A DNA stretch of 63,703 nucleotides, filler included, from an uncultured bacterium (GCA_964637655.1; 3 parts of 3 records of this genome joined end to end with filler, not necessarily neighbours in it); one strand, 5' to 3'; shown: positions 19,901 to 51,404, numbered from the whole stretch's first letter. Translations and numbers: made by a program. Notes: generated from the letters alone by a model not told the origin.

Positions 19901-22900
19901 TGACGGCGCGGTTGCCCCGCGCGGCACCGATGTCTGGGGCGAGGTGCTGGTCTATTTCAGCGAGCCGATGGGCGGCACCGCGCTCGAAGCGGGGCGCTAC
20001 AGCATTCCCGGCCTGACAGTCAACGGGGCGGAGCATCACGGGCCGGGGCAGGTGCTGCTGCACGTCTCGCCGATGGTTGAAGGGCAGGCCTACACCGTGT
20101 CATGCACCACCGCCCATGACCAGGCGGGCAACACCGTCGCGGTGAGCACCAGCGCGACCTTCTACGGGGCGAACGCGGGGAGTGATGAGGACTTCCAGCT
20201 CATTGCGGTCTCCGCGGACGAGGGGCAGCCGCTGCTCACTCCGGGGCAGCAGTTCCTCATCGCCTCCGCCATTGCCAGCGACCTGACAGCAACCGTCACC
20301 TCGGCGCATGACACCACCGGGATTTCCGTCACCCTCGTGCAATGCGACCCCGACGAACTGCCGGAGATCGTGCCGGACGGCAGCAGCGGCTTCTATGCCG
20401 CGCTGGCCGGCTGCGGCAGCGTGAGTGACGATGTCAATGACACCATCGCCGGGTTCAGCGGCGGCCTGCTGACCATCACCGTCGATAGCGTCAGCATCAC
20501 CCTGCCGCTGAGCGATACGCGCACGCTGGAAAGCGTTATTCATATCGCGCTGGCCGCTGATACGGTGCAGGCGGTGGCCACCTCGCTGCAGTACCCGGGG
20601 CGGGTCTGGCTGGCGGAGACCGCGGTCATTCCGCCGCAGGTCGTGCCGAACCGCGACTACAGCATCGTCGTCGACGAACTCGGACTGTACCAGGTGACGC
20701 TGACCCGGCTTTCCGACCTGCAGACGCAGACGCTCTACAACATCGTCGTCGACCAGTGGGGGAGCACGTACTCCGTCGCGCCGGCGCCGGTGACGTTCCC
20801 GGCGACCACCGACACCTTCGGGGTCATCTCGGGGATTCTCGACCGGCCTGACACCGGCACCGCGCTTGTCACCTACGACGAGGACGGCGAGATCGAGCGC
20901 TACCCGCACATCTTCGCGCATCGCCGCACGTCGAACGAGATCGCCGGCAAGCCGTGCAATCCCGAGAGCGACCTGCTGCTGCTGAGCAACGGCGACGTCA
21001 AGTACACCATCTGGGGGCTGCCCGTCAGCAGTGGCGAGACCGTCACCTACATCGTCGAGGTCAGTGCCGCGGGCTACCAGCCGGCGAGCCAGGGGGTTGA
21101 ACTGACGCAGCAGAAGAAGGACCGCACCGGGATCAACTTCCCGCTGCGCACCGCCGGCAGCGCCGTGCTGCGCGGGCGGGTGACGAGCAGCATCGACGTC
21201 GAGATCACCGATCTGACCGTCACCGCCATCAACGGGAGCAACGGCACGCTGCGCACCGCGCAGACCGACCGCGGCGGGTATTTTGCCATCGCCGACCTTG
21301 CTGCCGGCGACTACATTGTCACCGCTGACGCCACGTCGCGCGGCTACGTGGCCAAGACGCAGCGCCTGACCATTGATACGGGTGCCACGGCGATGGTCAG
21401 TTTCCGCCTCGAAGCGGCGCGCACCATCCGCGGGCAGCTGCTCAAGATTGCTGACAGCCAGCCGGTGACGAGCGCCGGGGCCATCATCGAGGCGGCCCCG
21501 CTGCTCGCTGGTATGGAGGGGCAGGTGCTGCTCACCACCCCGGCCGCCGACGGGACGTTCACCTTCCTCGGCATCCCCGACCTCGACGGGCTGACCTATC
21601 GTCTGACCGCGAATGCCAGCGGCTACAGCAAGGCGATCCGCAACGGTGTGGTGCCGGGCGAGACGCATGCCCTTCTTGCGGTGGCCCCGGTTTCCGCCGG
21701 CATTACCGGGCGGGTGGTGTCACCCGATACCGGCATTCCGGGCGCTTCGGTGAAGGTGGTGTCGCAGGCCGTCTCCTCCTACGTCAAGGTGACGCAGGCG
21801 AATGCCACGGGCACCTACACGGTCAGTGTGCCGGGCGGGTACTACACCGTCGAATTGTCGGCCCCCGGCTACCGTCGCGCGCTGCTGCAGAATGTGCCGG
21901 TGGTAGAGGGGCAGACGACCAATCTCGGGGCGGTGCTGCTCGAGGACGGGGCGACTATCAGCGGGCGTGTGAAGACCGCTGACGGGCTGGGCGTGGCGGG
22001 GGCGCTGGTGCGCGCGGTTTCGCCGGACAGCACCGCCTACCTCGGGAGCGCGCTGACCTCGGCCAACGGCTACTATGCCATCACCGGGCTGGTCAAGAAC
22101 GTCAATTACCGCGTTATGGCGCTGCAGAACGGCGGGGCTGATGTCTACCCGTACGACAAGCTCGTCTTCCTGACGGCGGATGCCACGGTCAACATCACCA
22201 CGACCAGCCAGCCGCCGCAGTTCTTTGTCGACTGCCAGCGCAGCTCGCTGGGGGACACGGTCTTCAACCTGACCATCACGACCAGCAAGCGTCTCATGTC
22301 GTCCCCGTACCTGACCGTACTCGCCGGGCATGGGCAGTTCTCGACGACGGACAGCAAGGCGGTACCGTACCTCGACCGCGTCTACAAGCTGAGCTACACG
22401 GAACCGGACACCACCGTCACGCTGGTCACGCTGCTGGTGACCGGAACCGACCTGAACAGCAGCGCGGGTTTCTGCACCTACTCGTTCAGCCCGCTCTACG
22501 AGAAGAATCAGGAGGTCGTGGTCAATGGCGGGCAGAGCAACCAGATTTCGCTGAGCAACGGGGCGAGTATCATCATCCCGGAGAACGCCTACCGCAATGC
22601 CAACGACACCGCGGCAAGTTCGCTGCAGAACTCGGTGCGCCTGCGCATTTCGCAGGTTGGGCTGCAGAGTTCGACGGGGGGCGAGACCTACGCACCGTCC
22701 TATTACGGGGCGCCGCGCTACCTCACGCAGTATGCGCCGCCGACCAGCGGGACGGGGCGCTGGGCGCGCTCGTCCAACGACTACGACATCCATCTGCAGG
22801 ACGGGACGGGTGAAACCGTCACCGTGGCGGAGGGCAAATTCCTCACCATCACCCTGCCGTACACCGACACGGCGGGCGCGGCGGCGGCGGGCAAACTGCA

Positions 22901-23178
22901 CCTCTACTACTACAACGAGACGCTCGGGCGCTGGGTGGGTGAGGTGACGGGGCAGATTGTCAATGTGGGGAACAATACCATCACCATCAGCGTCAACCAC
23001 CTGTCGAAGTTCGCGGTCTTCAAGGAACCGGCGGTGCCGGGGGATCTAAGCGACGACGGGGGCATTGTCAGTACCAACGATCTGGCGGCGATGAACGTCT
23101 ACTTCGTCACCAACAACGTGTCGGGCGATATTTCCGGGCCCAACGGGGTGCCGGACGGGGTGGTGGATTGTTACGACA
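13902..23178 (+). CDS. Giant secreted protein A (>=3,092 aa): CARDB-like N-terminus, many carboxypeptidase-regulatory-like/FN3/Ig domains, ZU5-like domain, C-terminal dockerin; true end lost in N gap
   Basis: Signal peptide (VPAYA-G); repeated G.I.G.V.D..G.P+.G..V...T...G.Y/F motifs; VNHLSKFAVF; PGDLSDDGGIVSTNDL...GDISGPNGVPDGVVDCYD paired Ca-loops. Confidence 0.88.
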
Positions 23179-23247
23179 NNNNNNNNNNTGGGGCAGGATT
23201 TCAACCAGTAGGAGGCGTGTGTGTAAGAAAAGATACAACGTATATGC

Positions 23248-23276
23248 TTGACAAGCGGCGGGAGTGTCTGTATACT
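23248..23276 (+). promoter_or_regulatory. Near-consensus sigma70 promoter for the adaptor/giant B/PorV-like genes
   Basis: TTGACA-17 nt-TATACT. Confidence 0.75.
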
Positions 23277-23397
23277 GTTTCATTGGGAGGGCAGCTATTG
23301 TGCCTGAATGCAGTCCGGCGGTACTTCGTATCCTCAATTCCGAAAAAAACATGCTTGGTGTACGCTGCGCCCGATGTTCGGGCGGGAGGGTAAACGG

Positions 23398-24204
23398 ATG
23401 AGATATTCGTCGCTTGCGATCTTCATAGCGTTGGTATTACAATTTCCTGCGTGGGCTGGAGGCACGTTGATATTATCTCCGACAAATCAAGGGTCGATCG
23501 CCGCGTTTTCGGCAACGCACAACTATGTCTACTACCTCGGAGATAGTAATCCATCGGGCCGTGCATATCCGACGATTCCGTTTAAGCTACTGGCGACCAT
23601 TGATACGCAACTGATGGCGTTTGTCGTTCACATCACATATCCAAAAACGAAAATCATTCCAGATACACTGAATATTCAACCGGGATCTTTTCTTTACAGC
23701 TGTACTTCGCCGACCGTTTCAGATAGTTATTTCTTTAACGTTGTTGTTGAACCGGGGTCGACAATTGATACGTTGACAATAACTGGCTCCCGCATGTCTG
23801 ATGACAGCAAAGCCCTGGGAGGGTGGACGACCTCTGACACGATTGAACTTGCAACCAATATCGTTTTCAATCGCTGTTCGACCGGATTAATTGATGGTCA
23901 AACCTTGGGCACGGTAACGGGACTCCTGAAATTTCGCGGACCGAACAATGCCAGTGCTGATTTTACTACAATTCAAGTATCAGCGAGCGGGTGGTCTCTA
24001 ATGAAAAAGGGCGGCGCCGGTTCGACTTGGGTCGGGTCGGCGGATTTGGATAATGACGGATGGATTACAACCGATGACTTAAAACCAATTCGCAGGTCTG
24101 GTATGATGGGAAGCCAAACTTTAGTTTATGATGCCGACATGGACGGCTGGATAACTACCGATGATTTGAAAATAATTCGTCGCTTAAATGGCAATTCATG
24201 GTGA
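23398..24204 (+). CDS. Secreted adaptor protein: cohesin-like beta domain plus C-terminal dockerin (268 aa), low GC
   Basis: GGAGG RBS; signal peptide (FPAWA-G); AF.VHITYP...GSFL...ELA...F cohesin-like pattern (tentative); ADLDNDGWITTDDLK.IRR and ADMDGWITTDDLK.IRR dockerin repeats. Confidence 0.8.
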   Translation: MRYSSLAIFIALVLQFPAWAGGTLILSPTNQGSIAAFSATHNYVYYLGDSNPSGRAYPTIPFKLLATIDTQLMAFVVHITYPKTKIIPDTLNIQPGSFLYSCTSPTVSDSYFFNVVVEPGSTIDTLTITGSRMSDDSKALGGWTTSDTIELATNIVFNRCSTGLIDGQTLGTVTGLLKFRGPNNASADFTTIQVSASGWSLMKKGGAGSTWVGSADLDNDGWITTDDLKPIRRSGMMGSQTLVYDADMDGWITTDDLKIIRRLNGNSW

Positions 24205-27200
24205 GGAGAATGACTTTGAAAACCACTGCCGGAGTTGGAACCGCAAATTATCCTCGCCAGATTTTTCAGATATTGTGCATCGCTTGTTTGGCGGGAATAT
24301 TGTCCATGGGATTGCCGGGTGTCGCATGGGCTTCGTATTGCGCGCTAAGTGATGGGGACACGACTACGTTCTTGCCGATCTCCCAAAAGCAGGTTGACCT
24401 TGGGGGGGCGTTTTCCGTATATTTATGGTTGAATTATGAGGACAATGCGTTGGCGGTCAATGACTTTGCTGCAGCAAGCAGAATCAAGTGGGATCCGAGC
24501 GCTCTCTCGTTAGTGGACACGGCGGTAGTTTCGCATGGGGCCACATCCGTTACGACCAGTGTTTTAAATCCGAATATCCCGTCTTCAGGTAGTCACCTGC
24601 TCATTATGGACTACAATCCGAATTATGTGTCGAATAAAGTTTCTGTTATACGATACGATTTTACTAAACTGACTGCTGCTGCAACGACAATTAATGTGGT
24701 GATTGATTCACGTTCGATCCCCGCAGAATTGGGATGTCTCTATAATGATTTTAACAATGGTAAACTTAAGGCGGATACGGCAATAAATTTGGTGGTCTAT
24801 TCGACTGATACGACTCCCCCGACGATTGATACTCCGACCATCGGAACCATGATTGCCGGAGAGACGAGGTCGGTTGCGGACATCATCTTGCGCGACGCAT
24901 CTGCTGCGGTTGACAATATGGCGTGTTCGATCTGGGTGCATCCGGGGACGGGCGGTAGCTGGATGCCGGTCAATCTGAGCTGCGATACGTATTACGGAGA
25001 TACTGCAGTGTTCTCGGGCTCGATTCCGGGCACTTACATTACGACACCGTATGTCTATTATTTCCTTTCTGGGAGGGACTCGGCGGGCAATTTCGCCAAG
25101 TGGCCGGCAGGAGCGAACCTCACCGATACAAATAATGCCGATTCCAAGGTGGTGTACAGCAATGTCCCGCTGACGGTCACCGGGGTCGGGCGCGGCAGTA
25201 CGTATTATTCCGATTCGCTGCCGGCGTCGGTCCATTACGCGACGACCACCGATTCCGTCTATATCTGGGTGAATACCGCGGCGGACTCGGTGTATGTGCT
25301 CAACCGCTCGCTGGGCGCCTTTGACGATACGGAAGTGACGACTTCCAATACGAACACCACAACGACGTCCCACTTCGGCTGCACGGTACCGCTGAAACCC
25401 GATGCTGCCAACTATATCGTGGTGGTGGGCCAGGACGGGGTCATGCCGTGGACAACGTCCGAGACCATTGTGGTGTACTGCGACACCGTGGGACCGCAGA
25501 CGCCGGTAGTGAGCGTCAATAACGGCGCCACGGCCATCAACTCGCTGACCGTCAACCTGATGATGACGGCGAACGACACCCTGAGCGGCACGCTCAAGTT
25601 CTACGTCGATGCCTGCACCATGCCCTACGCCCCGGATGCGTCGCTGATTGATGCGACGTACACCAAGGGACAGAACATGACAGGGGATACCGGGTCCCCG
25701 CTGACCGTAACCAGTTATTCGGACAGCAACTACCTGTACTTGTACGTGCAGGCCGAGGATTCTGCCGGCAACAAGTACATGGACGGCAGCAATATCGCGC
25801 TGAAGTCCGTGATCATCGACACCATGTCACCGCGCATCTACGATTACGCGAACGGCGCTGTCAGGACGTACACCAGCGTGGGCGATTCCGACGCACGGAC
25901 GGGCGAGACGCAGGCAATAACGCTCGCGATCGCTGACTCCACGGCGATTACCGGCACGCTGTATTTCCGGCACCAGAACATCGGCGTGTCGACCTGGGCC
26001 GCGGACACCCTGGTCCTGCTCGGTGCGCTGGGTGGCGACTTCAATCTGTACGGGTGTTCCATCCCGGCGCATGTGGTCGGGCAGGTGGGCACCAACGACT
26101 GCACGGGCGGCATCGAGGTGTTTGCCCAGATTACGGACGCGCTCGGCCAGAGCACCTGGATCGATTCTCGCGGGGTGACCCTGAACGACTCGTATTCGAC
26201 GGTGGTACAGCGTCAGGCGAGCGGCTTTGACACCTTTACGGCGGGCGATTCGGTGTACATTGCCCCGCAGGTACTGACCGATGCCATGTTCAACCGCGGC
26301 TATGCGCCGCAGGCGGTGGCCTGGAATGATACGGTCTATGTGACGGGCAACACCCTCTACATCGGGTTCGGCACGAACGCTGACACGGTGCGGGTCATTG
26401 GGGCCAACAGCACGGGCGGCACCATTGACACCGCGGTATGGCCGAACACGCGCAATTACTGGACCTCGACGGATACGTTCAGCATCGCGCTGCCGCTGGG
26501 CCCGGGCTACAACTGGTTCTCGCTGCAGGGGCACGACGACAGCGAACCGACGCGCATGGGCGACACGATTTATGTCTTCAACGACACCATGGTGCCGCTG
26601 GTGGTGGCCACGGTCATCGAGACCGGTGCGCTGGCGGTGGACACGCAGACGGCGCTGGTCGTGAGCGTGACGGCGTACGACACGCGCTCGGCCCTGGTCG
26701 GGTCGCAGCAGACGACGCCCGACACCATCGTCCTCTCCGACACCTTCTGGATGAATCCTTCCGTGCTGGCGGACACGACGACCGCCTACCTGGCAGCGTT
26801 CCGCACGTATCGTTATGCGTATGGCGCGGGGGTCTATACCTACAATGTGACGCGGACGGATACCACCATCTATTCGCTTTATGCGTATGCCATCGACCAG
26901 GTGGGGAACGTCAGCACGGCCGTGACGGCCATTGACACTATCTACCACGACACCGCCGGGGCGCAGATTGACTTCGCCGGTGTTGCCGACAACCGGGCGG
27001 CGACGCAGCCGGTGGCGTTGACTCTGACCGTGAATGAGCTGACGGGCGACAGTGCGGTGAGCGAAGTGAAGCTGTACTACTCGCATCCGTACGCGCAGGG
27101 CTACCCGAACGTCACCTGGTGGAGCGACACCACCGCGGCGGTGTACCTGACGGCCAATACCTGGCGCATCACCATCCCCGATTCGTTTGTCGGCGGGGTT

Positions 27201-30200
27201 GCGGACACCGTGACGGGGGTGCGCTACTTCGTGCGCACCAGGGATGCGTTGAACCATTACACGTATTGGGGTGTCACGGGCGGCTTACAAGCCAATCAGC
27301 GCGCCAATGTGTTCAGCTGCCACGATACGACGAGCAGTACGGGCGGCGACGCGCTCTATCAGAGTGACTATTATTACGACACCTTCAGCGTGGTGCTGGC
27401 GGTCAGCACGACCATCACCATCGGCGTCAGCGATGCGACGGATACGTGGTCCCTGGCCAGCGGGCTGTACTTCGCCTGCGATACGGCCTGGATCAACATC
27501 GTCAGCGAAGGCGATACCAAGTCCTACGCCAGCTATGGTGCGACGAACAACGTCATTACGGAAACGCAGACGCTGGCCGGTGTTGGCACTGTGCTGATGG
27601 ACAGCATCGCGCTGGCGATGGGCACGAACAACATCTTCGTGTACGTCGAGAGCGACACGCAGCCGGACTTCTGGATGAGCTACGCGGTCATCGCCGACAC
27701 GGCGGTGCCGATGCTCTACGGCGATTCGCTGACGGTGCGGGTGCATCGCGACGCGATCACGGGCCGGACCACCACGGACAGCCAGAACGGTGTGTACATC
27801 AACCTGCTGGCGGAGGACACCGGCGGCAGCAACCTTGCCCAGTACCGCGTCGGCGAGGCGCCCGGCGCGCTCGGGGCCTGGCAGAATTACGCGGCGCAGT
27901 TCCTATACACGTTCACGGCCCGCGATACGGTGCCGCTGTTCCTGCAGGTTAAGGATGCCGCCGGCAACCTGAGCGCGCTGCTGCAGGACACGATATATGT
28001 TGATACCCAGGGGCCGGCAATCGTCCACACTGCAATCGCCGACAGCCGGGCGAAGAACGCGGCGCTGGCGGTTACGGCGCAGGTTGACGATCTGAGCGGC
28101 ACGGCGGCGGTGACGAATGTCTTCGTCTGGTTCCGGAACCTGAACCAGTACGCCGGCACGGTCAACGGCTGGGATTCGGCCGCCATGGTGCGCACCGGCA
28201 CGTCGACGACGTTCACGGGCACCATCCCCGATTCGGCCATCGGCACGGCGGCGGATTCGGGAGTCGATTACTTCATCGAGGCGTGGGACACCTACGTCGC
28301 CATGGGCTCGGCGTTGAACCGCAGCTACTATTATGGCGCCGGTAGCGTGCAGACCGGCGTGACGCTGGCGCAGGCGCAGGCGAACCCGGACAGCTTCACC
28401 ACGGTTTCGGGCGTCAAGCTGGAAGTATGGCTGCGCGACGCGGCCGACGCACTGGGCAGCGACACGCGGGCGGCGAACGGGCTGTACTTCATGAGCGACA
28501 CCATTTTTGTCCGCCTGATTCACGACGCGGATTCGGTATTGGTCTATGCCAACGGCGTGCAGGTGGCTGCCTGCTCGCAGCCGGCGAACGCGACCAACGC
28601 CCTGGACACGCTGACGGTGAGCACGTTCAGCTGTACGGCCGGACTGAGCACGCTGATGATCGTCGGGATTGACGGCAGCCAGCCGTGGGACACGCAGGTT
28701 TACACGGTGTATGTCGACACCTGGGCGCCCGTCCTGAGTGCGGGCACGGACACGTTCACGATGGACAGCGACATGGTGGCGTCGCCGGATACGAGCGTTA
28801 CGATTTACCTCGCCCTGACCGACTCGGATGCCGGATTCAACGTGACGGGCGGCATCGCCTACTACGAACTGTCGGAGACCATCACGTTCAACGACACGGT
28901 GGCGACGGGCCGGCAGGCGTATACGCAGCTGCGCGACTGGAATTTCGCGAACACGGACGGCGATTCGGTGCTGACCCTGTACCTGCGCTACTGGGACGTC
29001 GCGGGCAATACCAGCCCGGTGTCGGCCCGCAGCATGTACTGGGACACGGTGGCGCCGAGCATCGTCTTTACGGCCATCACTGACAGCAAGCCAACCAGCC
29101 GGGCGGTGGCGGTGACGGCGACGTGCACTGACTTGTCAGGCACCGCGACGCTGAATGTGGTCACCTCAGTTTCACCGTACGCGACCTGGGAAACCTGGCC
29201 GCTGAGCGCGTCCGGGCCGAACACCTTCAGCGGCGCGATCCCTGACACGGTGGTCGGGAGCAGCGCCTCACTCACGGGGGTGCGTTATTACCTCGCGGCG
29301 ACTGACAGTTGGGGCAAGACGGCCTTCTGGGTGGGCGACGGAACGCTGTATGACAGCTTTACGGTCTCGCTGCCGGTGGCCACGACGGTGGCGGCGCGCG
29401 ACTTTGATACGCTTACCTACACGACGCTCGTCTCCTACGGATCGGGCTGGACGCCGACGTATTACCGCACTGACTCGTTCACCCTCAAGGTGACGACCAA
29501 TGCGGATACGCTGGCGGTGTACATCCTGAACAACGACCGCGCGGTGGTCTGGAACTCCGAGACCTTTGCGGTGGGTGTGGGTCAGGTCAACTTCGACACG
29601 TACCTGTTCCTTGACACGCATTTGCTGGATGACACCTGCTTCATTCAGGTCGTTGGCGCGGACAATGCCGAGCCGACGAATATCGACACCTACGCCATTT
29701 ACGTCGATACGCGGACGCCGTACTTCACCACGGCGGCGCTCATCGACGGCGGGCTCTACGCGACGGGCGACACGTCGGTGACCGTCACCTTTGCCGCTGC
29801 GGATACCTACAGCGTGGCGTATGTGATTGTCAGCGAGATGCACCCGCAGTTCATGACAGACACGGAAAGCCGCAAGGTGGCGTACACGACGAGCGTCACC
29901 TACACGCTGACGAAGGATACGCAGGTGGCGACCGTCTACGTGGCGGCGTTCGATATCGCAGGGAACATGGCGGTATCGCTCGACCAGATCTGGCTCGATA
30001 CCTTCGCGCCGTTCATCTACTACAACGGGGTGGATGACAGCCGCAGCATCAGCCAGCGCGTGGCGGTGCAGGCGACGATTGCCGATACCTCCGGCACGGT
30101 GCCGACGGTCGTGCTCTATTACCAGGACTCGACCTCGACGTGGGGTTCGACCGCGATGACGGCGCAGGTGGGCGGGACCTACCTTGGCTACATCCCGGCG

Positions 30201-32180: not shown

Positions 32181-32183
32181 GCG

Positions 32184-32212
32184 CGGCGGGGCGGGCAACC
32201 GCCCCGCCGTTT
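32184..32212 (+). terminator. GC-rich hairpin with GCAA tetraloop and short U-tract between giant B and the PorV-like gene
   Basis: CGGCGGGGCGG-GCAA-CCGCCCCGCCG-TTT (11-bp perfect stem). Confidence 0.6.
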
Positions 32213-32276
32213 CACCCGCCCACGGGCGGCAGAAGCGAAGAAGAGGGATGGCGCGAAGGCGCTGGTGGAGGCAACT

Positions 32277-33206
32277 ATGAAAACGATGACAATACTGGCA
32301 CTGCTCGGGGCGCTGCTGGCAATTCCCGCGTACGCGGATGATCCCGGGTCGGCCACCGCCCAGTTCCTGAAAACAGGACAGGGGGCGGGACCGATGGGGA
32401 TGGGCGGGGCGTATGCCGCGCTGGCGGGGAACGTCAACTCACTCTACTGGAACCCGGGCGGCCTGGGCGAGGTGGCGACGCCGGAAGTGCTCTTCATGCA
32501 CAACAACAACTACGTCGACATCAGCAACCAGTACCTCGGCTTTGTCTACCCGGTCGAGGAATGGGCGGGCACCATCGGCCTCGGGGTCACCTACCAGGAC
32601 TACGGGGACATCGATCGCACGCTGATCACCGGGGCGACCACCTACACCAGCAACGGCTCGTTCGGGGCCAACGACCTGTCCGTCGCGGTCGGCTACGGTA
32701 CGCGGCTTGACCCGTCGTACACCGTCGGCATGAACCTCAAGTACATCCGCAGCAAGATCGAAAACGAGGATGCCAGCGCGTTTGCAGTCGATCTTGGACT
32801 GCTCTGGCGCGAACCGGAATCGCCGTTCAGTGTCGGTATCGCGCTGCAGAACCTCGGCACGAAGATGAAGTTTATCAGCCGCCGTGACAAGCTGCCGCTC
32901 AATTTCAAACTGGGCATCGCCTACCGCCTGCTGCCGGAACTGACCTTCGCGGTCGACATGAACAAGCCCATCGACAATGACGTGCTGCTCAATGCCGGGG
33001 CTGAGTACTGGCTGGCGGACATGTTCGCGCTGCGCCTCGGCTACGACGGCATGAACGAGGCGGGGAACGGCATGACCGCGGGCGCGGGCTTCCGCTTCGA
33101 GGATATGTGTGTCGACTACGCGTGGGTGGACGGGGGCGACCTCGACGACGCCCACCGCGTGTCGCTCAATTTTGCCTTCGGTCCGATGACGGGACAGGCG
33201 TACTGA
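32277..33206 (+). CDS. PorV/PorQ (UPF0164, FadL-like) outer-membrane beta-barrel
   Basis: Signal peptide; A.FLK.G.GA...GMG.AY.A......SLYWNPGGL; alternating beta strands; C-terminal HRVSL.F.F. Confidence 0.88.
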   Translation: MKTMTILALLGALLAIPAYADDPGSATAQFLKTGQGAGPMGMGGAYAALAGNVNSLYWNPGGLGEVATPEVLFMHNNNYVDISNQYLGFVYPVEEWAGTIGLGVTYQDYGDIDRTLITGATTYTSNGSFGANDLSVAVGYGTRLDPSYTVGMNLKYIRSKIENEDASAFAVDLGLLWREPESPFSVGIALQNLGTKMKFISRRDKLPLNFKLGIAYRLLPELTFAVDMNKPIDNDVLLNAGAEYWLADMFALRLGYDGMNEAGNGMTAGAGFRFEDMCVDYAWVDGGDLDDAHRVSLNFAFGPMTGQAY

Positions 33207-33213
33207 CAGTGTG

Positions 33214-33417: not shown

Positions 33418-33517
33418 NNNNNNNNNNNNNNNNNNNNNNNNNNNNNNNNNNNNNNNNNNNNTTAATTAATTAANNNNNNNNNNNNNNNNNNNNNNNNNNN
33501 NNNNNNNNNNNNNNNNN
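33418..33517. other. Artificial contig-joining linker
   Basis: N-run, TTAATTAATTAA, N-run. Confidence 0.97.
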
Positions 33518-39500: not shown

Positions 39501-42500
39501 GTTTCACCAGCAGCGTCACGCTGACCTGCACCCCGGGGAGCGTGACCCCGGCAACGAGCGGAGCGTTCACCGCCGGTGTGCTTGGCAACCAGGCCTGTAC
39601 CTTCAGCGAGCGCGGCGACGTGGTGCTGACCGCAAGTCGAAGCGCGGCGACAACCGACCTGATCATCTCTGAGTACGTCGAAGGCGGTTCGTTCAACAAG
39701 TACATCGAGATTTATAACGGCACGGGTGCGCCGGTCAACCTCGCAAATTATGTCCTGCGCATGTACAACGGCGGCGCCACCACCCCGACTGCCGACACGA
39801 CCATGTCCGGCATGCTCCCCAGCGGTTCGGTATTGATTGTCCGGCACGGGTCGGCCGTAATTTACGGCGGTGCGGCCTGTATTTCGAGTACGGTTGCCAA
39901 CTATAACGGCGATGATGCTGTCGCGTTGTTCACGGTCGGCGGGGATACGGTGGATATCTTCGGTTGTATCGGTGAGGATCCCGGGAGCGCCTGGACGGTC
40001 GGGGCGAATACAACCGTCAACAAGACCCTGGTGCGCAACGCGAATATTCTGACCGGCAATACCGCCAATACCCCCGGGTTCCCGACGCTGGGGACGGACT
40101 GGACGCAGTACAACCAGGACGAGGCCGGCTACCTCGGTTCCCACACGGTCAGCGGTAGTTCGGCGAGCGGCACCATGGCACTGACGGTGCGGCCGGTGGA
40201 AACGGCGTCGGCCATCACCTGCCTGACCGCGGCGTCGGTGAGCGGGGTGGTCATCGACACGCATCTGGCGGGCGACACGCTGTATGTGCGTTTGACCGAC
40301 GACGACGCCAACCGCTACCGCACGCGCATCGACACCGTCACGGTGACCCTGAATGTGCTCATGCGCGGCGACACGGAGACCATCGTGCTCACGGAAGGCA
40401 CGGCCGACACCATGTACTTCTACGGCAGCATTCTGTCGCGGGTCTGGCCGGCGGCGCTGGTCGGCAACGGCCTGCTGGATGTGCGTCCGGGTGACACGGT
40501 GACGCTGCGCTACGAGGATCCGGACACGGCGGCGGATGTCGCGCTGCAGACCGACACCTTCGACCTGCGCACGGCGGCGGTGCTGCTGGTGGCGGATGCG
40601 ACGTGGACGGCGGTGACGGGCTTCCTGGCCGGCGACAGCATCTTCATCGAGATCAGCGATGCCGATGAGGACACGCTCCCGGCCGCCGTCAACATCGTGT
40701 ATGTCGTGCTGCACACCGAGGTGGCGGATGATACCGAGGTGCTCGCGCTCTTTGGCACTGCCAACGCGGCGGACACCTTCCGCAACAGCATCCTGACGGA
40801 CACGCTGGCGGCGGGGGTAGGCAACGGCATCCTTTCGGCCGCGGCGGCGGGTGACACGCTGACCGTGACTTACGTGGACAGCAACGACGGGGCCGACACG
40901 GAGCGTGCCTACCCGGTGCGCCTGGTGGGTGACGGGCCGGCGCGCATCGTGCTGGCCAACAGCGCGGGCATGGAACAACCCACCTATACGCTGGGCGATA
41001 CGGTCTATATCACCCTGTTCGACCGTGACCAGAATATCCACCTCGACCGGGCGGAGACAGTGACGGTGCTGCTGGTGGCGGAGAACGGCGAGACGTTATG
41101 GGTGATGTTGACCGAAAACGGGCTGAACAGCGACACGTTCGTCGGGCAGGTGCTGACGGTGAGTGGCGGACCCGACACGGCAAACGCCACCTTCCAGCCG
41201 TCGCTGGGCGATTCGCTTTCGGTCTACTACACCGATGCGGACAGCGTCACTGACAGCGTACTCGATACGGCGGCCGTCGCCAATGTCACGCAGAGCTACA
41301 CCCTGCTGACCGGCAGCAGCATGGTGTCGGTGTCCGGCTACGTACTGGGCGACACCATCTACATTGTGGTGCGTGACGGCGACGAAAACAGCGACCCGGC
41401 GACCGTACAGCAGGTGATTGCCACGCTCGGCAACGGCGCGGACACGGAAACGGTCATCCTCACCGAGGCGGGCAATGACACTGAGACGTTCTCCGGGCAG
41501 ATCCTGTCGGCGGTGGCGGCGGCGAGTCCGGGAGACAGTGTCTTCCAGAGCAGTGCGCTGCAGGACACGGTCTGGGCGTATTACGTCGACAACGACACGG
41601 CTGCCGACAGCAGCAGTGCCAGCGCCCGGGTGGTTGCGCCGCAGGCGTCCACGTTGCGCTTCACCAACAGTACCTACACGGCGGCGGCAACGTCCTACCG
41701 CGCGGGCGACACGGTCTATGTCGAACTGGTCGACCCGGACCGCAATCTCAACCTGGCGGCGGTCGAATACGCCTACGTCATACTCGAGACAACGCGCGGC
41801 GACAGCGAATTCGTCACGCTGACCGAAATCTCGGTGAGCAGCGACACCTTCCGCGGCCAGTACCTGTCGTCGTCGCAACCGGCGGTGACAGCGGCCAACG
41901 GCAGCATCGAGGGTATCGGCGGCGACACGGTGCGCGTGACCTACACCGGCTACGGCAGCGACAGCGGCAGCGCGCAGGCATGGTTCGATTCGCCCGCGCA
42001 GATTGCGCTGCTCGGCGCCAACCAGGCGGCTACGTACGGCTATTATCCGGGTGACACGCTCTACGTGCGCGTGGTCGATTTTGATGCCAATCGCGACCCG
42101 CTGGCCGCGGAGACGGTGACGGTGACCTTGTGGACGACGGAGCGCGGCGACACGGAAACGGTCGTGCTCACCGAGGCGGGCACTGACACCATCATCTTCC
42201 ACGGCAACATCCGCGTCGATTCGGCGCTGACGGTGCCGACGCCGTACAACGGGATCATTGAGGATACGGTCGAGCTCGACACGTTCTACGCGCGCTACAC
42301 GGACGCCGACTACGCGGGAGACACGGCGCTGGCCAGCCACCTGTCGCTGACCTGGCTGCGCGAAATCCAGGCAATACCATTCCGCTACGGGCCGAACTTC
42401 ATCCCGCTGGTCAGCAACAAGTACGTGCGGGTCATCGGCACGGTGACGGTGGACACGCGCACGCTCAAGACGGCAGTCGATGGCGACTACGACACGCGCA

Positions 42501-45500
42501 TCGCCTGTATCACCGACTCGAGCGGCTACGGTGTCGCCATCTACTCGTCACCGAACCTGTCGCTGGCCGGGCCGCTGCAGCCGGGCGACGTCTTCCTGTT
42601 CACCGGCAAACCGACCGAGTACCGCGGCTGGACGGAACTGACCCTCTACGCGCCGCTGAGCAGCGCGGCGGTAAAACTCGGTTCGCTCCCGGCCCCGGCG
42701 CCGCGCACCTTCACCACCGGCGAGTACCCGTACGAGAATGGTGTCTGGTCGGATGGCGAAATGCTCGAAGGGTTGTACGTGCGCTACAGCAACATGCGGG
42801 TTTCCAGCTGGGACCTGGCCAACCGTGCCATCGGCATCAATGACGGCAGCGGCGAACTGCTCATCCGCGACGGGTTCACCTGGTTCTCCGATGCGGTGGC
42901 AGTCGGCGACACGGTGAGCGTCACCGGGTTCTTCTGGCAGGATGACGGAGCCGACCCGCGCGACCAGCACTACTACATCCGGCCGCAGCAGCCGCGTGAC
43001 GTCTACCGCCTCATGGTCGACCAGCCGATTCCTTCCGACACCTCGTATGCCGCCCCGGGTGACACGGGGACGGCGCTTGCCGTGCGCATCAAGGGCGCGG
43101 TGGTGCAGGATACCCTGACGGCATTCGCGGTGACGACGCTGGGCAACCTGACCAACGCGCAACTCACCCGGGTGTCGCTCTGGGTGGACAGCAACAGCCG
43201 CTACGACGCCGGCACGGAAGCCCCGGTGGGTGACCTGGTGTGGAACGCGGCGACCACGGCGTGGGAATGGACGGGCGCCTGGCCGCTGACGCTGCTGAAT
43301 GGCGACAGTTTCACCGTGGCGGTGCAGGTCAAGACCGCGGGGGTGGCGGACGGCGATTCGTTCCTCGCGCGGGTGCGCAGTGACAGCGTGACTACCGCGG
43401 TCAGCGGCAGCGGCATTGACAGTGCCGTGACGGCGCCACACGCTTTCTACGTGGACGGGCCACCGGTGCTCTACGGGCTGACCCTGGCCAGCGACAGTCC
43501 GGCCTACCGCTACCCGGCGGCGTTGAGCGTCGACACGAACACGGTGCAGGACACGGTCTGGTTCAACGGCGCGCAGGTGCAGAACTGCACCTTCACCGTG
43601 CTGTTCAGCGACGTGCGCACCGATTCGCCGACGCATGTGCAGGGCTCGCAGAACTTCGGCAGCGCGCCGTCCGACTGGGACATTACGGGGGGCTGGCTGC
43701 TGTCCTACCCGAACGTGACGGGCAACGCCGACACGCAGGTTGTCGTCCATGTCTACGACATGATCGGCAACCACGACTCGGTGACGGTCAACTTCATCAA
43801 CGATACGCACCCGCCCACCGCGCTGGCACTGCTCTACCCGGCCGACGCCTCGGGCACGACGGCAACCACGGTGCCGTTCGCGTGGAGCGCGGCGACAGAC
43901 ACGGGGAGCGGATTTGCCCGCTACCGCTTCGAACTTGACACCTCGGCGGTGACGGCCGGCTACGAGTACAGCACCGACACGACCGACACCTGCCTGACGG
44001 GCGTGCTGCTGACGGCTGATACCGTCTACGCGTGGCGGGTCGTCGCGTACGACAATGTCGGCAACACCGTGACGGTGGCGTCGCGGACGCTGACCGTCGA
44101 CCATACTGCACCCGCGGTGACGCTGGTCAAGCCCGATTCGGGCTCGCTGACGAATGATTCGTACGCGCAGGTCTACGCGCTCTACAGCGACGCGCTGGCG
44201 GGTATCGATACGCCGTTAGTGACGCTGACGGTGGATACCGGCACCGGCGCGCGTGCGGTGGCCGCTACGGTCAGCGAGACGGGCATCTGGTACACGCCGC
44301 CGGCCGGGCACAGCGACTCCGGCCACTTCGGTTGCACGGTCACGCTGGCGGTTTCCGACCGTTCCGGCAACACCACCACGCTGTCGTGGTGGTTCACCGT
44401 CGACCGCATCATGCCGTACCTGAACAGCGTGACGCTGGCCAGCGACAGTGCCAGCGGCTTCTTCAGCCCGGACGGCGCCATCGCGGCAGCAGGAGAAGAC
44501 ACCGTCTGGTTCAACGGACTGGGGGTGCAGACCTGCACCTTCACCGTGCTCTGGAGCGACCTGCACTTGGATTCTCCGGCGTATGTCGCCGGGAGCCAGG
44601 CGTTCGGCAGCGCTCCGCAGGACACCACGGACAGCTGGACGCTGTCCTACACGGTACGCGGCAGCAGCGACACGGTGGTGAGTATCACGCTGCATGACGC
44701 GGCGGGCAATACTGACACGGCGGCGCTGACGGTCAATTTCCGCAGCGATACGACGCCGCCGACGGTACCGCAGTTGCAGACGCCGGCGGAAGGATATGAC
44801 ACGTACGTGCGCACGCTGCTGCTCACCTGGGCGGCGAGCAGCGACACGCAGAGCGGGGTGGCGCGGTACCGGGTCGAAGTCGACACCAGCGCGGCGACCG
44901 CGGGCTACGAGTTCGCGGTCGATACGCCGGGGACGGCCATCTCGCTGTACGGGCTGGCGGACACGAACTATACGTGGCGGGTGACGGCGTACGACAGCGT
45001 CGGGCTGGCGGCAGTGAGTGCGGATTCGCACTTCACGGTCGACCATGACACACCAGTCATCTACAACCCGACGCCGGACAGCGGCAGCACCACCTCGGAC
45101 AGCCGTACGTCGTTCGGGTTCAATTTCACCGATGCCGGCATCCTGTCCGGCATCGACACGACGACGGCGCGCCTCTACCTCGACACCGGCGCGGGGATGG
45201 TTGCCATTGCGCCGGGTGCCTGCAGCATCAGTGCGGTCGGACTCGGCTACACTCCCTCGGCCGGGCTTGGCAACCCGGACACGTTTATCGTCACCTGCAC
45301 GGGCGTGGTGGCGGACAAGGCGGGGAACGTACAGACCTATGTCTGGTCGTTCCTTATCGACCAGACCATCCCCGATACCCCGGCAATCACTTTCCCGGCA
45401 CGGTACCATGACACCAACGTCGCGACCATCACGGTGACCGGCACGACCGCGGAAGGCGGGGACACCATCTTCATCTACCGCGACAACGTGCAGGCCTGTT

Positions 45501-48500
45501 CGCTGGCGCTGGGCGTGGCGACCACCTGGTCGGTGCAGGTCTACCTCGGGGCGGTAAGCGGCACGTACACGTTATCGGCGGTGGCGGTCAACAACATCGG
45601 GCGTTCTGACACCAGCGTCCTCTGGCCGGTGAATTTCGACCGCGATACCCCGGTGCTGACGGTCACCTACCCGGCGACCCCGTACGATACTTCGTGCAGC
45701 CCGGTGGTGATTGCCGGCACCGTCACCGACAACAGCGATACCCCGGTGGTGATCTACTGCGGCAATGGCACGGAGACCGTCACCTTCGCGGTTTCGGCAA
45801 CGGGAACGTGGGGTGGCACGCTCAATCTGACGGGTCCGGACACAACGAACTACACGCTCCGGGCGTCGGATAGCGCGACCAACGCGGTCAGCGCAGCGCG
45901 CGCGGTATTCTTCGACACCAAACTGCCAGATGTCACCATTGTCCCGCCGGCCCTGACTGATACCAACGCGCATACCGTCTGGCTGGCAGGCGCGGCATAC
46001 GATTCGCGCACAGTCATCCCGCAGGTGCGCTACAGCACCGATACAGGCGGCAGCGGCGTGCTGGCGGTGGCGGGCGGCTTGTGGAGCGGCGCGGTCGCGC
46101 ACAGCGCGGTGCTTTCGGGAACAGTGACGGTAAGTGTCGGGGCGCAGGACAGCGCGACCAACTGGGACACGGCAACCAGTGCCCTCTATTTCGACCAGGA
46201 TTCGCCGGTGCTGGGCATCACGCGCCCGGCGGCAGGCACGGATACGAGCGCTGCGCTGGTCTGGTGCGAGGGGACAGCAGTCGATACGCGCGTGGCGGTG
46301 GTCTACGTTGCCTTTACCACCTCGCAGGGACAGACCGGCACGCTGCCGGTGAGCGGCGGGGTGTTCAGCGGCGTGATACCGGCCCCGCTGGCGGGGAGTA
46401 TCACCTGCACCTTTACCGCGGTCGACAGCGCGACCAATACCGGCAGCGTGGTGCTGTCATTCAACCGCGACACGGGCGCACCGGACGTGGTCATTGCCCG
46501 CCCGGCCGTCAGCCCGTACGATACCAACGTCGCGGTGGTGGTGCTGGGCGGCACGGTGACGGATAACAGCGACACGCCGCTGGCGCTTTACTACACGTTC
46601 GGGACGGGGCTCGACAGCGGGTATGTCGCGGTCGGCGTGACGGGGGCATGGGAAAAGGTGGCGACGCTGTACGCCTCGGGGACGCTGACGGTGAACGTCA
46701 CGGGCTCGGACAGCGCGGGGAACGCGGACACTGCTACGACGGTGGTCTACTACGACACGCAGGCGCCGGTGCTGACGCTGGCACAGCCGGCGCATGCCTA
46801 CGACACGGCGACCGACACGGTGATTGTCGCCGGTGCGGCCTACGACAGTCGCGTGGCGATCGGCGCGGTGCGCTATGTCACCGAAGACGGCGCGAGCGGC
46901 TGGCTCTACCCGGCGGCGGGCATCTTCACCGGCGCGGTGCCGCTGAACGCAGCGGCGGGCGAGACGGTGGACATCACGCTGACCGCGGCGGACAGTGCGA
47001 CCAACAGTGGCACGGTGACGGTGTCGGTCTACCACGACACGGTGGCGCCGCGCGTGTCGCTGGCGCGGCCGGCGCAGGGCTACGACACGTCGAGCGCGGT
47101 GGTCTGGTGTGCGGGCGCGGCCTTTGATACGCGCGTGGTCATCACGCAACTCTGGTACGCGACGACGCAGAACGTTTCGGGCTCGCTGCCGGTGAGCAGC
47201 GGCCTGTGGAGCGGTGCGGTGGCGCTGCCCTTCGGCGGCACCATCACCTGCACCTTCACAGCATATGACAGTGCAGGGAATGCCGGCTCCTGCACGGTGA
47301 CGGTCAACCGCGACACGGGCGCGCCGGACGTGGTCATCGCGCGCCCGTCAGTCAGCCCGTACGATACCAATGTGGCGACGGTGGTGCTGGGCGGGACGGT
47401 GACTGACGATTTCGATACGCCGCTGGCGCTCTACTACTCATTCGGGACAGGACTCGACAGCGGCTACGTAGCGGTCGGCGTGACGGGTGCATGGGAAAAG
47501 GTCGCGACGCTGTACGCCTCGGGGACGCTGACGGTGAATGTCACGGGCTCGGACAGCGCGGGCAATATGGACACGGCAATGACGGTGGTCTACTACGACA
47601 CGCAGGCACCGGTGCTGGCGCTGGCGCGTCCGGTGCACGGTTACGATACGGGCGCGGGGAACGTGGTGGTGGTCGGGTCGGCGCAGGACAGCCGCGTGGC
47701 GATCGGTGCGGTGCGCTATGTCACCGAAGACGGCGCGAGCGGCTGGCTCTACCCGGCTGCGGGCATCTTCACGGGCGCAGTGCCGCTGAACGCGGCAGCG
47801 GGCGAGACGGTGGACATCACGCTGACCGCGGCAGACAGCGCGACCAACAGCGGCACGGTGACGGTGTCGGTCTACCACGACACGGTGGCACCGGCGGTGA
47901 CGCTGGCACAGCCGGCGCAGGGCTATGACACCTCCAGCGCGGTGGTCTGGTGCGCGGGCGCGGCCTTTGATACGCGCGTGGTCGTCACGCAACTCTGGTA
48001 TGCGACCTCGCAGAACGTGAGCGGGTCGCTGCCGGTGAGCGGGGGCCTGTGGAGCGGCGCGGTGGCACTGCCGTACGGCGGCACGATCACCTGCACCTTC
48101 ACCGCGTATGACAGCGTGGGGAATGCGGGATCCTGCACGGTGACAGTCAACCGCGACACGGGAGTGCCCGCGGTGACCATCCTGCAGCCGGCGGCTGACT
48201 ATGACACGAATGCGAATGTGCTGGTGGTGCGCGGCACGGTGACCGATGACTTCGATACGCCGCTGTACGTGACGGCGCAGGCGGGGAGCGCGACGGCGGT
48301 CATGCTCACGGTGAGCGCGGGCGCNNNNNNNNNNATGGAGCGGCACGGTGCCGCTGGTGCCGGGCGAGACACAGACGCTGACGGTGAGCGCGACGGACAG
48401 CGCCGGCAATACCGGGACGGATACGCGCTCATTCAACTACGACACGATGCCGCCGGTGCTCAACCTGGCCTACCCGGCAGACGGCTACGACACTGCGGTG

Positions 48501-51404
48501 CCCTACGTCATCATCGGCGGCACGGCAGCTGACTCGCTGGCGCGCATCGATACGGTCTACGTGCGCACGGCGACGGGGTGGACCGGCAGCGCGGCAGTGA
48601 CTGCCGGCGCGTGGTCCTGCTCGGTGCCGCTGAGCGCGGCGAGCACGGTCATCACGGCGTCATGCACCGATGCGGCGACCAACACGATGCTCGATACGGT
48701 GCAGGTCGATTACGACACGGCGGCACCGCTGGTCATCATCACGGCGCCGGCGAACAACAGCGGCACGAGCGTGCAGACGGTGACGGTGCGCGGCACGGCA
48801 GCGGACAGCGTGACGGCGGTCGGCGGCGCCATTGTCCGCATCAACAACGTGCTGACCGCGGTGACGGCGGTGAGCAACGGCACCTTCACGGTGAGCGTGG
48901 CGCTGCCGGCGGGCGCCTGCAGCATCAGCGTCTCGTGCAGTGACGCGTTCGGCGCCTACGGTCACGATACGATTACCGTGACGCTCGATACCGGCGTCCC
49001 GCTGGTGCAGATCACGAATTTCGCGTCAGGCGCGGATACCAGTGCCAGCGTGGCGGTGCCGCTGTCCGGTACGGCGGCGGACAGCTTCAGCGCGGTGAGC
49101 GCGGTGGCGGTGAGTGTCAACGGCAGCGGCACGTCGGTGGTGGCGCTGGCAGGCGGACGCTGGAGCACGGCGGCGAACCTCGCGGTCGGCGTCAACACTG
49201 TCATGGCGACGTGCAGCGACGCGCTGGGCAACGAGACGCGCGCGGTGGCGGTACTCTACTACGACACCGGCGCCCCGGTCATCACCGGGGTGGCGGCACT
49301 GTTCAGCAGCGACAGCGTGGTCGACTACGATACGCCGCTCAGCGCGGCCGCGGATACCATCTGGGTCAACCCGGTGGCGGGGTTCACCTGCACCTTCACG
49401 GTGGCGTTTGTCGAGCCGTCGCCGCTGGCGGTTACCGGAAGCACGAACTTCGGGCAGACGCCGGCGGACACGCAGGCGGCGGGCGGCTGGACGGTCGCGT
49501 ACATCGTTCCGGCCGGGCTGGCGGCTGATACCACAGTCATCATCACGGTGACCGACGTCTCCGGCAAGACCGACACGGTCGCGTACGTGTTCGCGGTCGA
49601 CAACTACTGCCCGGCAGTGACGCTGGTAACCCCCGCGGACCTCGCGGAGACCACGGTGGCAACCCCGCTGTTCGGCTGGACGGCGACCGCGGACACGGGC
49701 GCGGGGCTGGCCTACTTCCGCGTCGAACTCGACACCGACGCGGTCTGGACGGCGGTTACGGCGAATGAGACGACGACCCTGACGACCTGGACGCCGGCGA
49801 CGGCGCTGACCAGCGACACCTGGTACTGGCGTGTGACCGCGGTCGACAGCGCGGGGAACGTGAGCAGCGCGGTGCAGCGCTCGCTGCGCATCCCGTCGAC
49901 CAATTTCACGCCGCCGTTCGCGCTGACCCCGGCACTCGAGGCGGCGGGCGGCGGGCGCTACACGGTGCGCCTCGAATGGACCGCAACCCCGGACACGCGG
50001 GCGACGCGCTACCACCTCTACTACGAGGTTGATGCGGACGGCAGCGACACGCTGGTACACGGCGACACGACGGTAAGCGACACGTATATCAGCGTGCCCG
50101 ACACCACCTGGCGTTCGCCCTTCCTGCTCACCGCGGACACGCGCTACGTCTTCGCCCTGCGCGCGGCGGACACGACGACCGAGGAACAGAACCAGAACGT
50201 GCAGGCAAGCATCTACGTGCCGGCCGTGACTGCGGGCGCCAACGATACCGGCACCGCCTACATCATGACGCCGAACAGCGGCCAGTCGGTGCGCGGCACC
50301 GCGGTGACGGTGGCCGCCGACCTGGTCGATATCGACGCTGACGGGGTGGCGCATGTCACCTTCCAGTACCGGCGCACGGGCGACAGCATGTGGAGCGACA
50401 TCGTCAGCAGCAGCGAGATGCCGAATCCCGACCCGACCTGGCCCTACTACGTGCACTGGGACGTCAACGGTACGCTCGGGGTGCAGAGCGGCATCTACAT
50501 CCTGCGCACGCTCGTCACGTACCGCACCGGGAGCGTGGTCGAACAGCCGGTCTATAAGACGATTTCGTTCGGCGACACGATTGCGCCTGATATCCGCGAA
50601 GAGGACACGGGCGTGCTGCACTGCAAGCAGCAGCGCGTGTGGCAGAACGTGGCGACGGACGTCTACCTCGGCGACGAACGCGACGACCTGCTGCTGCAAC
50701 TGCGCGTGCCGGCCGGGGCAATCAGCGATTCGCAGACGTTCCTGCGCATCGAGCAGTACGACGACCCGAACCGTTACAGCGATTCGCTCGCGGCGGGCGA
50801 ATTCACGAATCTTGGCGAGTTCCGCACGTTCACCTTCACCAACGGTGACACGCAATTCGCCGCGGGACGCGAAGTCGAACTCTGGTTCCCGTATGCTGAC
50901 GCCAACAACGACGGTGTCGTCGACGGGCAGATCCTGTTCGAGACGGAACTCAAACTCTACTGGTACAACGACCGCACGCAGACCTGGGAAGTGGTGCCCG
51001 GCCAGACGATCAACACGGCGGAGAACTACATCCACGCGCGGCTGACACACTTCAGCACGTACGCGGTCTTCGGGCCGGCGGCGGCGGCGAACCTCGACCT
51101 GGTCACGGTGTTCCCCAACCCGTTCCGCCCGAACAACAACAGCGCGGATGACGGCATCCCGTACCAGCCGGGGAACCAGAACTCGGGGATCATCTTCGGC
51201 AACCTGAGCGCGCGCGTGGTGATCGAGATCTACGACCTCAGCGGGCGGCGCGTGGCGCGCCTGCAGCCGGACAACCTCAGCCGCAACGTGCAGTGGGACG
51301 CCTGCGATGAGGACGGCAGCGACGTGGCGAGCGGCATCTATCTTTACGTCATCACCGGCGCGGACGGGAAGAAGCGTGTCGGCAAACTGGGCATTATCAG
51401 GTAG
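33518..51404 (+). CDS. Giant protein C (>=~5,950 aa, 5' partial; ORFs 33548-48324 and 48335-51404 joined across the N gap): three lamin-tail domains, repeated Ig-like units, OB-fold-like region, FN3/Ig repeats, ZU5-like domain, T9SS-like CTD
   Basis: DLIISEY.EG...NKY.EIYNGTG (x2) and IKLNEI...DEWVELYN lamin-tail motifs; many D.E.V.L.E.....G.F.G units; LTHFSTYAVF; VFPNPFRP...WDACDEDG..VASGIY...GKLGIIR; deleting the 10 Ns gives in-frame VSAGA-WSGTVPL. Confidence 0.88.
46462..48147 (+). repeat. Intragenic tandem duplication, 843-bp (281-aa) period
   Basis: CAACCGCGACACGGG anchors at 46462, 47305 and 48148; near-identical protein repeats (GLDSGYVAVGVTGAWEKVATLYASGTLTVNVTGSDSAGN). Confidence 0.93.

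Follow-up and report, generated by a model that had tools for sequence, protein, structure and literature searches.

The closest described relatives of the proteins treated here come from two lines of work. Zhang, de Souza, Anantharaman, Iyer and Aravind (2012) united the ZU5, GPS and Nup98 domains, noted that large surface proteins of bacteria can combine ZU5 domains with adhesion modules, and proposed autoprocessing as a general feature of such proteins (PMC3482391). More recently, Brogan and Rudner (bioRxiv, 13 May 2026; 10.64898/2026.05.12.724683) described GAIN_B-like domains that occur in both bacteria and archaea and are called MAIN (Microbial Autoproteolysis INducing). Bacillus subtilis YfkN is cut between F and S of HFS, as seen by Edman degradation, and the cut is lost in the S1346A variant; YfkN and other Bacillota MAIN domains cleave between HF and S, and the fragments co-purify. 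MAIN proteins are presented there as a signal peptide followed by adhesion or enzyme domains, the MAIN domain and an anchor, for which shear-driven release was proposed, and the authors frame MAIN as a possible Gram-positive counterpart of autotransporters. Here we report on three giant proteins, A, B and C, which are encoded in a window of 63,703 nucleotides (the whole stretch of DNA that was analysed) from an uncultured bacterium (GCA_964637655.1). All three carry homologous domains closed by a conserved H-[L/F]-S triplet shortly before the C-terminal module, and the fold, which is firm for C only, is that of the GAIN and ZU5 sandwiches.

Since this device had been predicted by 2012 and was demonstrated for Bacillus in 2026, the three giants are a further instance of a known domain kind, and the self-cleavage that the initial annotation of the window had proposed is the model of the preprint, already in print (10.64898/2026.05.12.724683). 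The likeness to YfkN and the other MAIN proteins, as described there, comprises a GAIN_B-like sandwich (firm for C), an HX(S/T) that sits at the turn leading into the last strand, very large proteins, the same architecture and a proposed release by force. The anchors differ, since those described in the preprint are sortase signals, cell-wall-binding domains and SLH domains, whereas here we find T9SS-type (type IX secretion system) tails and private PorV/PorQ-family barrels in a bacterium with outer-membrane barrels. The main text of the preprint never mentions T9SS, type IX, dockerin or ZU5, and its supplementary tables (350 Pfam partners) may list such tails. Literature searches on T9SS and autoproteolysis gave, among the matches listed, no title or abstract on a GAIN or ZU5 domain before the tail, and searches on type IX secretion, autoproteolysis and ZU5 gave, among the matches listed, none with both T9SS and ZU5. 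What goes beyond print, as far as we found, is the T9SS-type tail with its private PorV-like barrel and an anchor-only gene after C.

The locus also differs from the other described systems. In the 2012 work the ZU5 domain is usually N-terminal, near SpvB/RHS in polymorphic toxins (PMC3482391), whereas in the giants it stands last, ahead of the anchor. The GAIN domains of adhesion G-protein-coupled receptors (CD97, 9mqr; BAI3, 4dlo; GPR56, 5kvm) are the best structural matches of C, with Z of 10-12, and share the H-L-S/T site cut before the last strand and the place of the domain immediately before the membrane anchor. In contrast to them, C has neither a helical GAIN_A domain upstream nor a seven-transmembrane region downstream, where a T9SS-type tail stands instead; its domain model holds a single Cys, and there is no known signalling role for the retained strand. 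NLRP1 and CARD8 with their ZU5-UPA FIIND, and PIDD and UNC5 with their ZU5 domains, have the same sandwich (FIIND Z 8.6-9.6) and an HFS site cut before Ser; they are cytosolic death-fold signalling proteins, whereas the giants are predicted extracellular adhesins and have no UPA or CARD. With Bacteroidota T9SS cargo and its PorV/PorQ shuttle and attachment the locus shares TIGR04183 tails (T9SS type A sorting domain), PorV/PorQ-family barrels and a SprA-like frame that stays below its cut-off. The difference lies in a dozen or more PorV-like paralogues, most of them directly downstream of a tailed giant.

The domain closed by the His-x-Ser triplet

The three giants, their domains and their triplets (coordinates of the triplets computed from residue numbers) are as follows.

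13902..23178, + strand: giant A, with a Sec-type signal peptide and at least eight CarboxypepD_reg repeats, running into a 10-N gap
22509..23033, + strand: MAIN/GAIN_B-like domain of A, by the family hidden Markov model (HMM)
22998-23006, + strand: HLS of A
24198..32180, + strand: giant B, 2660 residues, with a signal peptide and a T9SS-type C-terminal domain (CTD) at its end
31269..31856, + strand: divergent MAIN-like domain of B, by hhalign to the family
31818-31826, + strand: HLS of B
33518..51404, + strand: giant C, its 5' end cut by the scaffold start, with a 10-N gap at 48325-48334 and a T9SS-type CTD at its end
50589..51083, + strand: MAIN/GAIN_B/ZU5-fold domain of C
51048-51056, + strand: HFS of C, corresponding to H154-F155-S156 of the structural model

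Signal peptides are present in A (N-terminus MMRMVIAGLVLLALAVPAYA) and B, and the N-terminus of C is missing from its scaffold. The repeats of A were matched by Pfam PF13620 in eight stretches (E 9.2e-86), while the domains recognised in C are LTD, fn3, Glucodextran_B and Big.

The initial annotation had read HLS, HLS and HFS at the end of A, B and C, and the translations and codon positions bear this out (flanks ...ISVNHLSKFAVF in A, ...IRVTHLSIWGVF in B and ...ARLTHFSTYAVF in C). The bare pattern H[FL][ST] occurs 2, 1, 4 and 1 times in A, B and the first and second part of C, with 0.50, 0.43, 1.17 and 0.15 occurrences expected from composition, and the extended pattern H[FL][ST]x[FYW][AG][VIL] occurs exactly once per giant. 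It had further been claimed that each motif closes a homologous domain, which holds as well: the three flanks align, and the invariant columns include L, W, H, S, V and F. In each giant the motif-closed β-sandwich ends about 10-25 residues before the C-terminal module.

The fold is best documented for C. The AlphaFold2 model of its domain, built from 50 aligned sequences, reaches a predicted local distance difference test score (pLDDT) of 93.6 and a predicted template modelling score (pTM) of 0.88. In a Foldseek search against the PDB this model gave seven matches at E<=1e-3, all of them GAIN or ZU5, with BAI3 GAIN as the best (E 9.7e-6) and CD97, BAI2, ankyrin ZU5, UNC5b and GPR97 among them. 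VIA-align, a structure search independent of Foldseek, returned 17 chains at Z>=8, and those listed are all GAIN, ZU5, FIIND or axonemal entries. The highest values belong to CD97 (Z 12.2, root mean square deviation 3.0, 143 aligned residues), ankyrin ZU5 and BAI3 (both 11.7) and GPR126 (10.9), followed by the FIIND of CARD8 (9.6) and NLRP1 (8.6-8.8); unrelated glycosidase domains begin at 6.7, and Nup98 scores 5.2. According to DSSP, the 171-residue model consists of strands and only two short helical turns. The region upstream of the C-type domain matches titin-like Ig/FN3 repeats in the profile. This PDB sequence search, made with the mixed alignment, gave mostly titin-like and tail matches, and BAI2 (8oek) appeared only at E 0.23. 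C also carries a calcium-binding-like loop inside the domain (window 50889-50930, ...PYADANNDGVVDGQ...), which A and B are without; in most family members this loop reads Y-x-D-x-[DN]-x-D-G-[IV]-V-D-G-T (Y 94%, D 97%, G 93%, D 98%).

The triplet itself lies where the known cut sites lie. In the C model H154-F155-S156 form the turn between strands 147-152 and 157-163, which are the last two, and the aligned stretch of the model stops at F155 in 8 of the top 20 VIA-align rows. In one of these, that for the NLRP1 chain 6x6c_E, the alignment runs up to residue 1212. hNLRP1 deficient in autoproteolysis carries its mutations at F1212 and S1213 (PMC7483925), and therefore the register of the C motif agrees with a known cut site.

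For A and B membership in the family comes from sequence profiles. The family HMM matches A at E 3.8e-11 (frame residues 2885-3059, HMM positions 11-163 of 169), with HLS at the homologous motif column. B was not matched by this HMM at E<=0.01, and a homologue search with the B domain gave a single protein (76% identity), for which reason the B alignment has only six rows. Nevertheless, a domain-only hhalign comparison of the six B-type sequences with the family resulted in a probability of 97.9 (E 5.8e-13, 62 columns) with the HxS residues aligned, and with the tails included the probability was 99.8. Hence, B is best called a divergent family member by sequence. Its AlphaFold2 model (pLDDT 69.1) places H184-L185-S186 between strands 177-182 and 188-192, again the last two. 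The ten best VIA-align rows for this model are the same GAIN, ZU5, CARD8 and axonemal entries that head the list of C, at a Z of only 5.0-6.1, inside what the tool gives as its noise range, and Foldseek gave no GAIN or ZU5 row for B, only Ig-like rows at E>2e-3. The expected GAIN/ZU5-like fold was thus recovered by both structure searches for C, a firm fold match failed to appear for B, and A is joined to the family through the HMM.

The family is large. Queried with the 171-residue stretch of C that runs up to the motif, a library of 1.84 billion representatives gave 910 proteins at E<=1e-3, and a family HMM was built from the best 150 of these 910 matches. This gave 189 copies of the domain, and the columns of the motif are covered in 185 of them. 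Conservation of the two catalytic candidates, on which the initial annotation depended, is borne out in these 185 copies: H is kept in 77%, F/L in 91% (73 and 18%) and S/T in 91% (74 and 17%), followed by x-[FY]-[AG]-[LIV], and a Trp upstream of the motif is kept in 98% of the family copies. Furthermore, conservation depends on position, as H-hydrophobic-S/T/C is kept in 116 of the 132 copies within 150 residues of the C-terminus vs 27 of the 53 internal copies, and in several multi-copy proteins the last copy alone is canonical. The library proteins P0006 and P0038 have 3-7 internal copies with N-F-S, S-F-S or N-Q-T replacing H-F-S and beta-helix-like repeats after each. Such copies are probably non-cleaving, and their N-x-S/T could represent glycosylation sequons.

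What follows the domain varies. The tails after 133 near-C-terminal copies were sorted by a rough regular expression into putative classes, namely 82 of the PxP[FYW] type, 15 with a CFI-box-like Cys motif, 13 of at most 20 residues, 5 with Asp-rich repeats, 4 with a hydrophobic helix and a basic end, and 14 others. The kinds seen include PNPF-type tails, Cys boxes of the GGGGCFIATAAYG... type, Asp-rich TSP3-like repeats and ends made of Cys, a hydrophobic helix and RRK; moreover, short tails of 8-13 residues ending in W-x-x-Y follow some copies. When the 50 aligned members were scanned with Pfam, 14 had FlgD_ig, 12 had CHU_C, 7 had Por_Secre_tail and one had ZU5 (E 4.2e-4), and the domain of C itself drew no match. 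Similarly, neither Pfam nor NCBIfam assigned the domain to a family when run on the C-terminal pieces of the three giants. Nearest came a weak match to TIGR04213, PGF_pre_PGF (E 0.054), at residues 248-291 of the C-terminal piece of C, about window 50943-51074. Judged from this profile match, TIGR04213, an archaeal domain that precedes PGF-CTERM sorting signals, may have the same fold in the same place before an anchor.

In the genome from which the window comes (3.99 Mb, 485 contigs, 90.55% complete), the family HMM finds 13 open frames with 15 domain rows, and 12 of these 15 rows have H[FL]S. The same genome has 14 TIGR04183 tails. Eight of them are preceded by H[FL]Sx[YW], including the tail of every open frame longer than 850 residues; the six tailed frames lacking this motif have 138-753 residues. 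The Dxr of this genome reaches only 42-56% identity to proteins from mixed phyla, and a search of genome contigs for related loci with a single protein as query gave no relative.

Tails, barrels and the make-up of the window

The modules after the domain and the barrel genes next to them are listed below; both CTDs come from the TIGR04183 scan of the genome.

23034..23178, + strand: tail of A, a dockerin-like calcium-loop segment (GDLSDDGGIVSTNDL...) of about 46 residues, cut by the 10-N gap
31947-32171 (contig C11, 29552-29776): CTD of B
32265..33206, + strand: PorV/PorQ-family outer-membrane barrel gene directly after B (NF033709, 210.9 bits, cut-off 90)
51174-51386 (contig C13, 17657-17869): CTD of C
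51825..53852, + strand: second gene downstream of C, for a PorV/PorQ-family barrel that ends in a TPR region (NF033709, 195.3 bits, cut-off 90; TPR-family matches)

The tails of B and C score 28.4 and 29.1 bits against TIGR04183 (cut-off 23), and most likely they dock on the PorV/PorQ-family barrels encoded just downstream. A complex model of the barrel at 32265-33206 with residues 275-392 of B reached a score of 0.94, the best control 0.03; among 78 solved complexes 51 came up to that mark, as did 2 among 108 mismatched pairs. The partners have a pLDDT of 89 or higher and 98% or more of the contacts recur between the runs; the contacts lie in residues 283-392, in the tail and outside the MAIN strand. 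The pairing recurs in the genome, which has at least 13 PorV-like open frames, most of them immediately downstream of a tailed giant and some with a TPR tail. PorV/PorQ-family barrels were also seen after tailed proteins on contigs C1, C14, C18, C24, C25, C30 and C345. With regard to the remaining secretion machinery, the best two pieces of a SprA-like open frame of 1891 residues score 82.1 and 51.7 bits, each below the family cut-off of 200. GldM was not found in this genome, and the control search matched none of 14 control genomes; therefore this miss says little.

The placement of the motif directly before an anchoring module, as originally annotated, stands for B and C, where the T9SS-type tails follow 10-25 residues after the domain. 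For A, the tail is dockerin-like, but the label dockerin could not be confirmed: NF041540 (dockerin_GC) reached E 0.003 and 17.9 bits, below its cut-off of 29, Pfam Dockerin_1 has four matches elsewhere in the genome and none at the tail of A, and cohesin (PF00963) was not found in the 90.55%-complete genome.

The window consists of three scaffolds joined by N spacers, namely the end of contig C1 (1-2295), C11 (2396-33417) and C13 (33518-63703).

2296-2395 and 33418-33517: N spacers between scaffolds; gene adjacency across either is not real
23179-23188 (in A) and 48325-48334 (in C): 10-N scaffold gaps inside the giants

A and B are located on one scaffold and C on another. A reading of the three giants as a single gene cluster was considered and rejected, because the window joins separate scaffolds. 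Just upstream of A (12912-13751, + strand) we noticed a gene resembling REP-associated tyrosine transposases (NF047646, 69.9 bits, cut-off 80).

Proposed self-cleavage and its alternatives

Taken as a whole, we think it likely, though well short of certain, that each giant is an exported multi-domain adhesin-like passenger, in which a self-cleaving MAIN domain stands last before the anchor module and the fragments are held together non-covalently. Self-cleavage as proposed in the initial annotation is supported, and neither the fold searches nor the conservation survey went against it. By analogy with the known domains, the His of H-[L/F]-S would activate the Ser hydroxyl, the Ser would attack the preceding Leu/Phe carbonyl in an N-to-O acyl shift and the ester would then be hydrolysed, breaking the chain just ahead of the Ser. 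Hydrogen bonds would keep the last strand, S-x-[FYW]-[AG]-V-F, within the sandwich, and the passenger with its thousands of residues would hang, by non-covalent contacts only, on a fragment of ~120 residues in which the strand is followed by a linker of roughly 10 residues and by the CTD. The tails of B and C would be docked on the downstream barrels, and the dockerin-like tail of A on some partner. Mechanical load or unfolding could then pull the strand out and shed the passenger. Giant by giant, the computational support for this reading can be called firm in C, good in A and weaker in B.

Several points weigh against it. Ankyrin ZU5 and some GAIN domains that bear HxS/T are not known to cleave, and the title of 8oek, an entry for BAI2, includes the words 'in the uncleaved state'. 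The Pfam ZU5 (PF00791) and GPS models match none of the three window domains at E<=1, which sets these domains apart from the bacterial ZU5 autopeptidase domains, and Pfam ZU5 is reached by only 1 of the 50 scanned family members. The assignment to MAIN builds on modelled fold, motif and architecture rather than on a sequence comparison to cleaved YfkN. Membership of the A domain is argued from the HMM and not from a fold, and the fold evidence for B is weak on all three counts of model confidence, VIA-align and Foldseek. In addition, the model of the B tail with its barrel may have passed owing to likeness to solved PorV-tail complexes. Finally, cleavage, fragment retention and force-dependent release in A, B and C are extrapolated from GAIN, ZU5 and MAIN precedent, which for MAIN comes from domains of Bacillota only.

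One alternative is a non-cleaving ZU5-like sandwich that serves as a stalk or spacer before the anchor, with the His-x-Ser turn kept for folding and the chain intact; we regard this explanation as unlikely, albeit one to be taken seriously. The fold is common to non-cleaving ankyrin ZU5 (Z 11.7), and the triplet is missing in 16 of 132 pre-anchor and 26 of 53 internal copies that presumably still fold. Within the genome itself, the copy on contig C88 has TDFRQYAI at the place of the triplet, and cleavage in the three giants is a prediction. However, the much better retention of the triplet before the anchor than in internal copies is hard to explain by folding alone, and nearly all tested Bacillota MAIN domains with the triplet were purified as associated cleavage products, as stated in the text of the preprint (10.64898/2026.05.12.724683).

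A second explanation treats the motif as a site at which a trans-acting protease, a PorU-type T9SS sortase or another envelope protease, removes the tail, which appears very improbable. In its favour, T9SS tails are normally removed by PorU, and some 20-30 residues separate the motif from the PNP[FY] with which the T9SS-type tails start. But in the C model, a sandwich folded with confidence, the triplet sits buried in a turn, and the same domain with the same triplet also stands before CFI-box-like, Asp-rich, hydrophobic-plus-basic and very short tails. Moreover, the PorU catalytic region was not found in the 90.55%-complete genome, which gave tail-like matches only. That the three motifs arose by chance has virtually no probability left, since the bare triplet does turn up eight times across the giants but the extended pattern falls once per giant, each time at the homologous column of a domain family that has 910 members in the library, and the alignments refute this explanation.

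The anchor-only gene after C

Between C and its barrel gene lies one further gene.

51414..51821, + strand: small gene for a protein of 135 residues, directly after the stop codon of C, with AGGAG upstream of its ATG

Its product consists of a signal peptide ending in ...TAWA, then AFTVFGLAPAADLD and a full T9SS-type tail; what stands between signal peptide and CTD is a copy of the last strand of the MAIN domain, with the linker. It is 58% identical to the tail of C over 119 gap-free residues. TAWAAFTVFG of the small protein is aligned to THFSTYAVFG of C, and therefore the AxA signal-peptidase site lies one residue from the predicted self-cleavage point. The junction falls exactly at the HFS turn, with the signal peptide in place of everything upstream.

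The arrangement is not confined to this genome. One same-family genome was searched, which belongs to another genus, and it has the same three genes in the same order (G001:C105; small gene at 1462-1890 of the stretch read). Its giant ends in ...THFSTYALFGPAAAPNLD and a tail, and its small protein, which is 56% identical, reads ...PLAAYA, then AYTVLGGVALANLD and a tail, with the PorV-like-TPR gene next. A homologue search with the small protein gave one protein (93% identity) among 77 candidates. From the synteny and the junction it follows that a passenger-less copy of the predicted anchor fragment was kept, and that evolution has kept exactly the fragment that autoproteolysis would leave lends circumstantial support to the cut point.

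A further-reaching idea, which we regard as rather improbable, is that in this deep-branching lineage the three genes form a surface cassette, which joins a giant with MAIN domain and tail to an anchor-only protein and to a PorV/PorQ-TPR barrel of its own. In that case the tail would be a permanent barrel anchor that is not removed by a PorU-type sortase, the MAIN cut would be the sole breakable link, and the free strand of the small protein might complement a passenger or compete for the barrel. If this were true, a free MAIN strand would be present on the cell surface after removal of the signal peptide, and strand complementation would allow re-dockable attachment of a strand-less passenger. 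In any case, the conserved anchor-only gene provides a handle on the role of the retained strand, which the Discussion of the preprint leaves open (10.64898/2026.05.12.724683).

With regard to the domain family, the three giants would take the self-cleaving GAIN-like tether beyond the wall-anchored proteins of Gram-positive bacteria, to giant adhesins that bear T9SS-type tails in an uncultured lineage with genes for outer-membrane barrels. If the cleavage is true, the biggest surface proteins of this organism would be held by a single β-strand, which would bear on its adhesion, shedding and dispersal.

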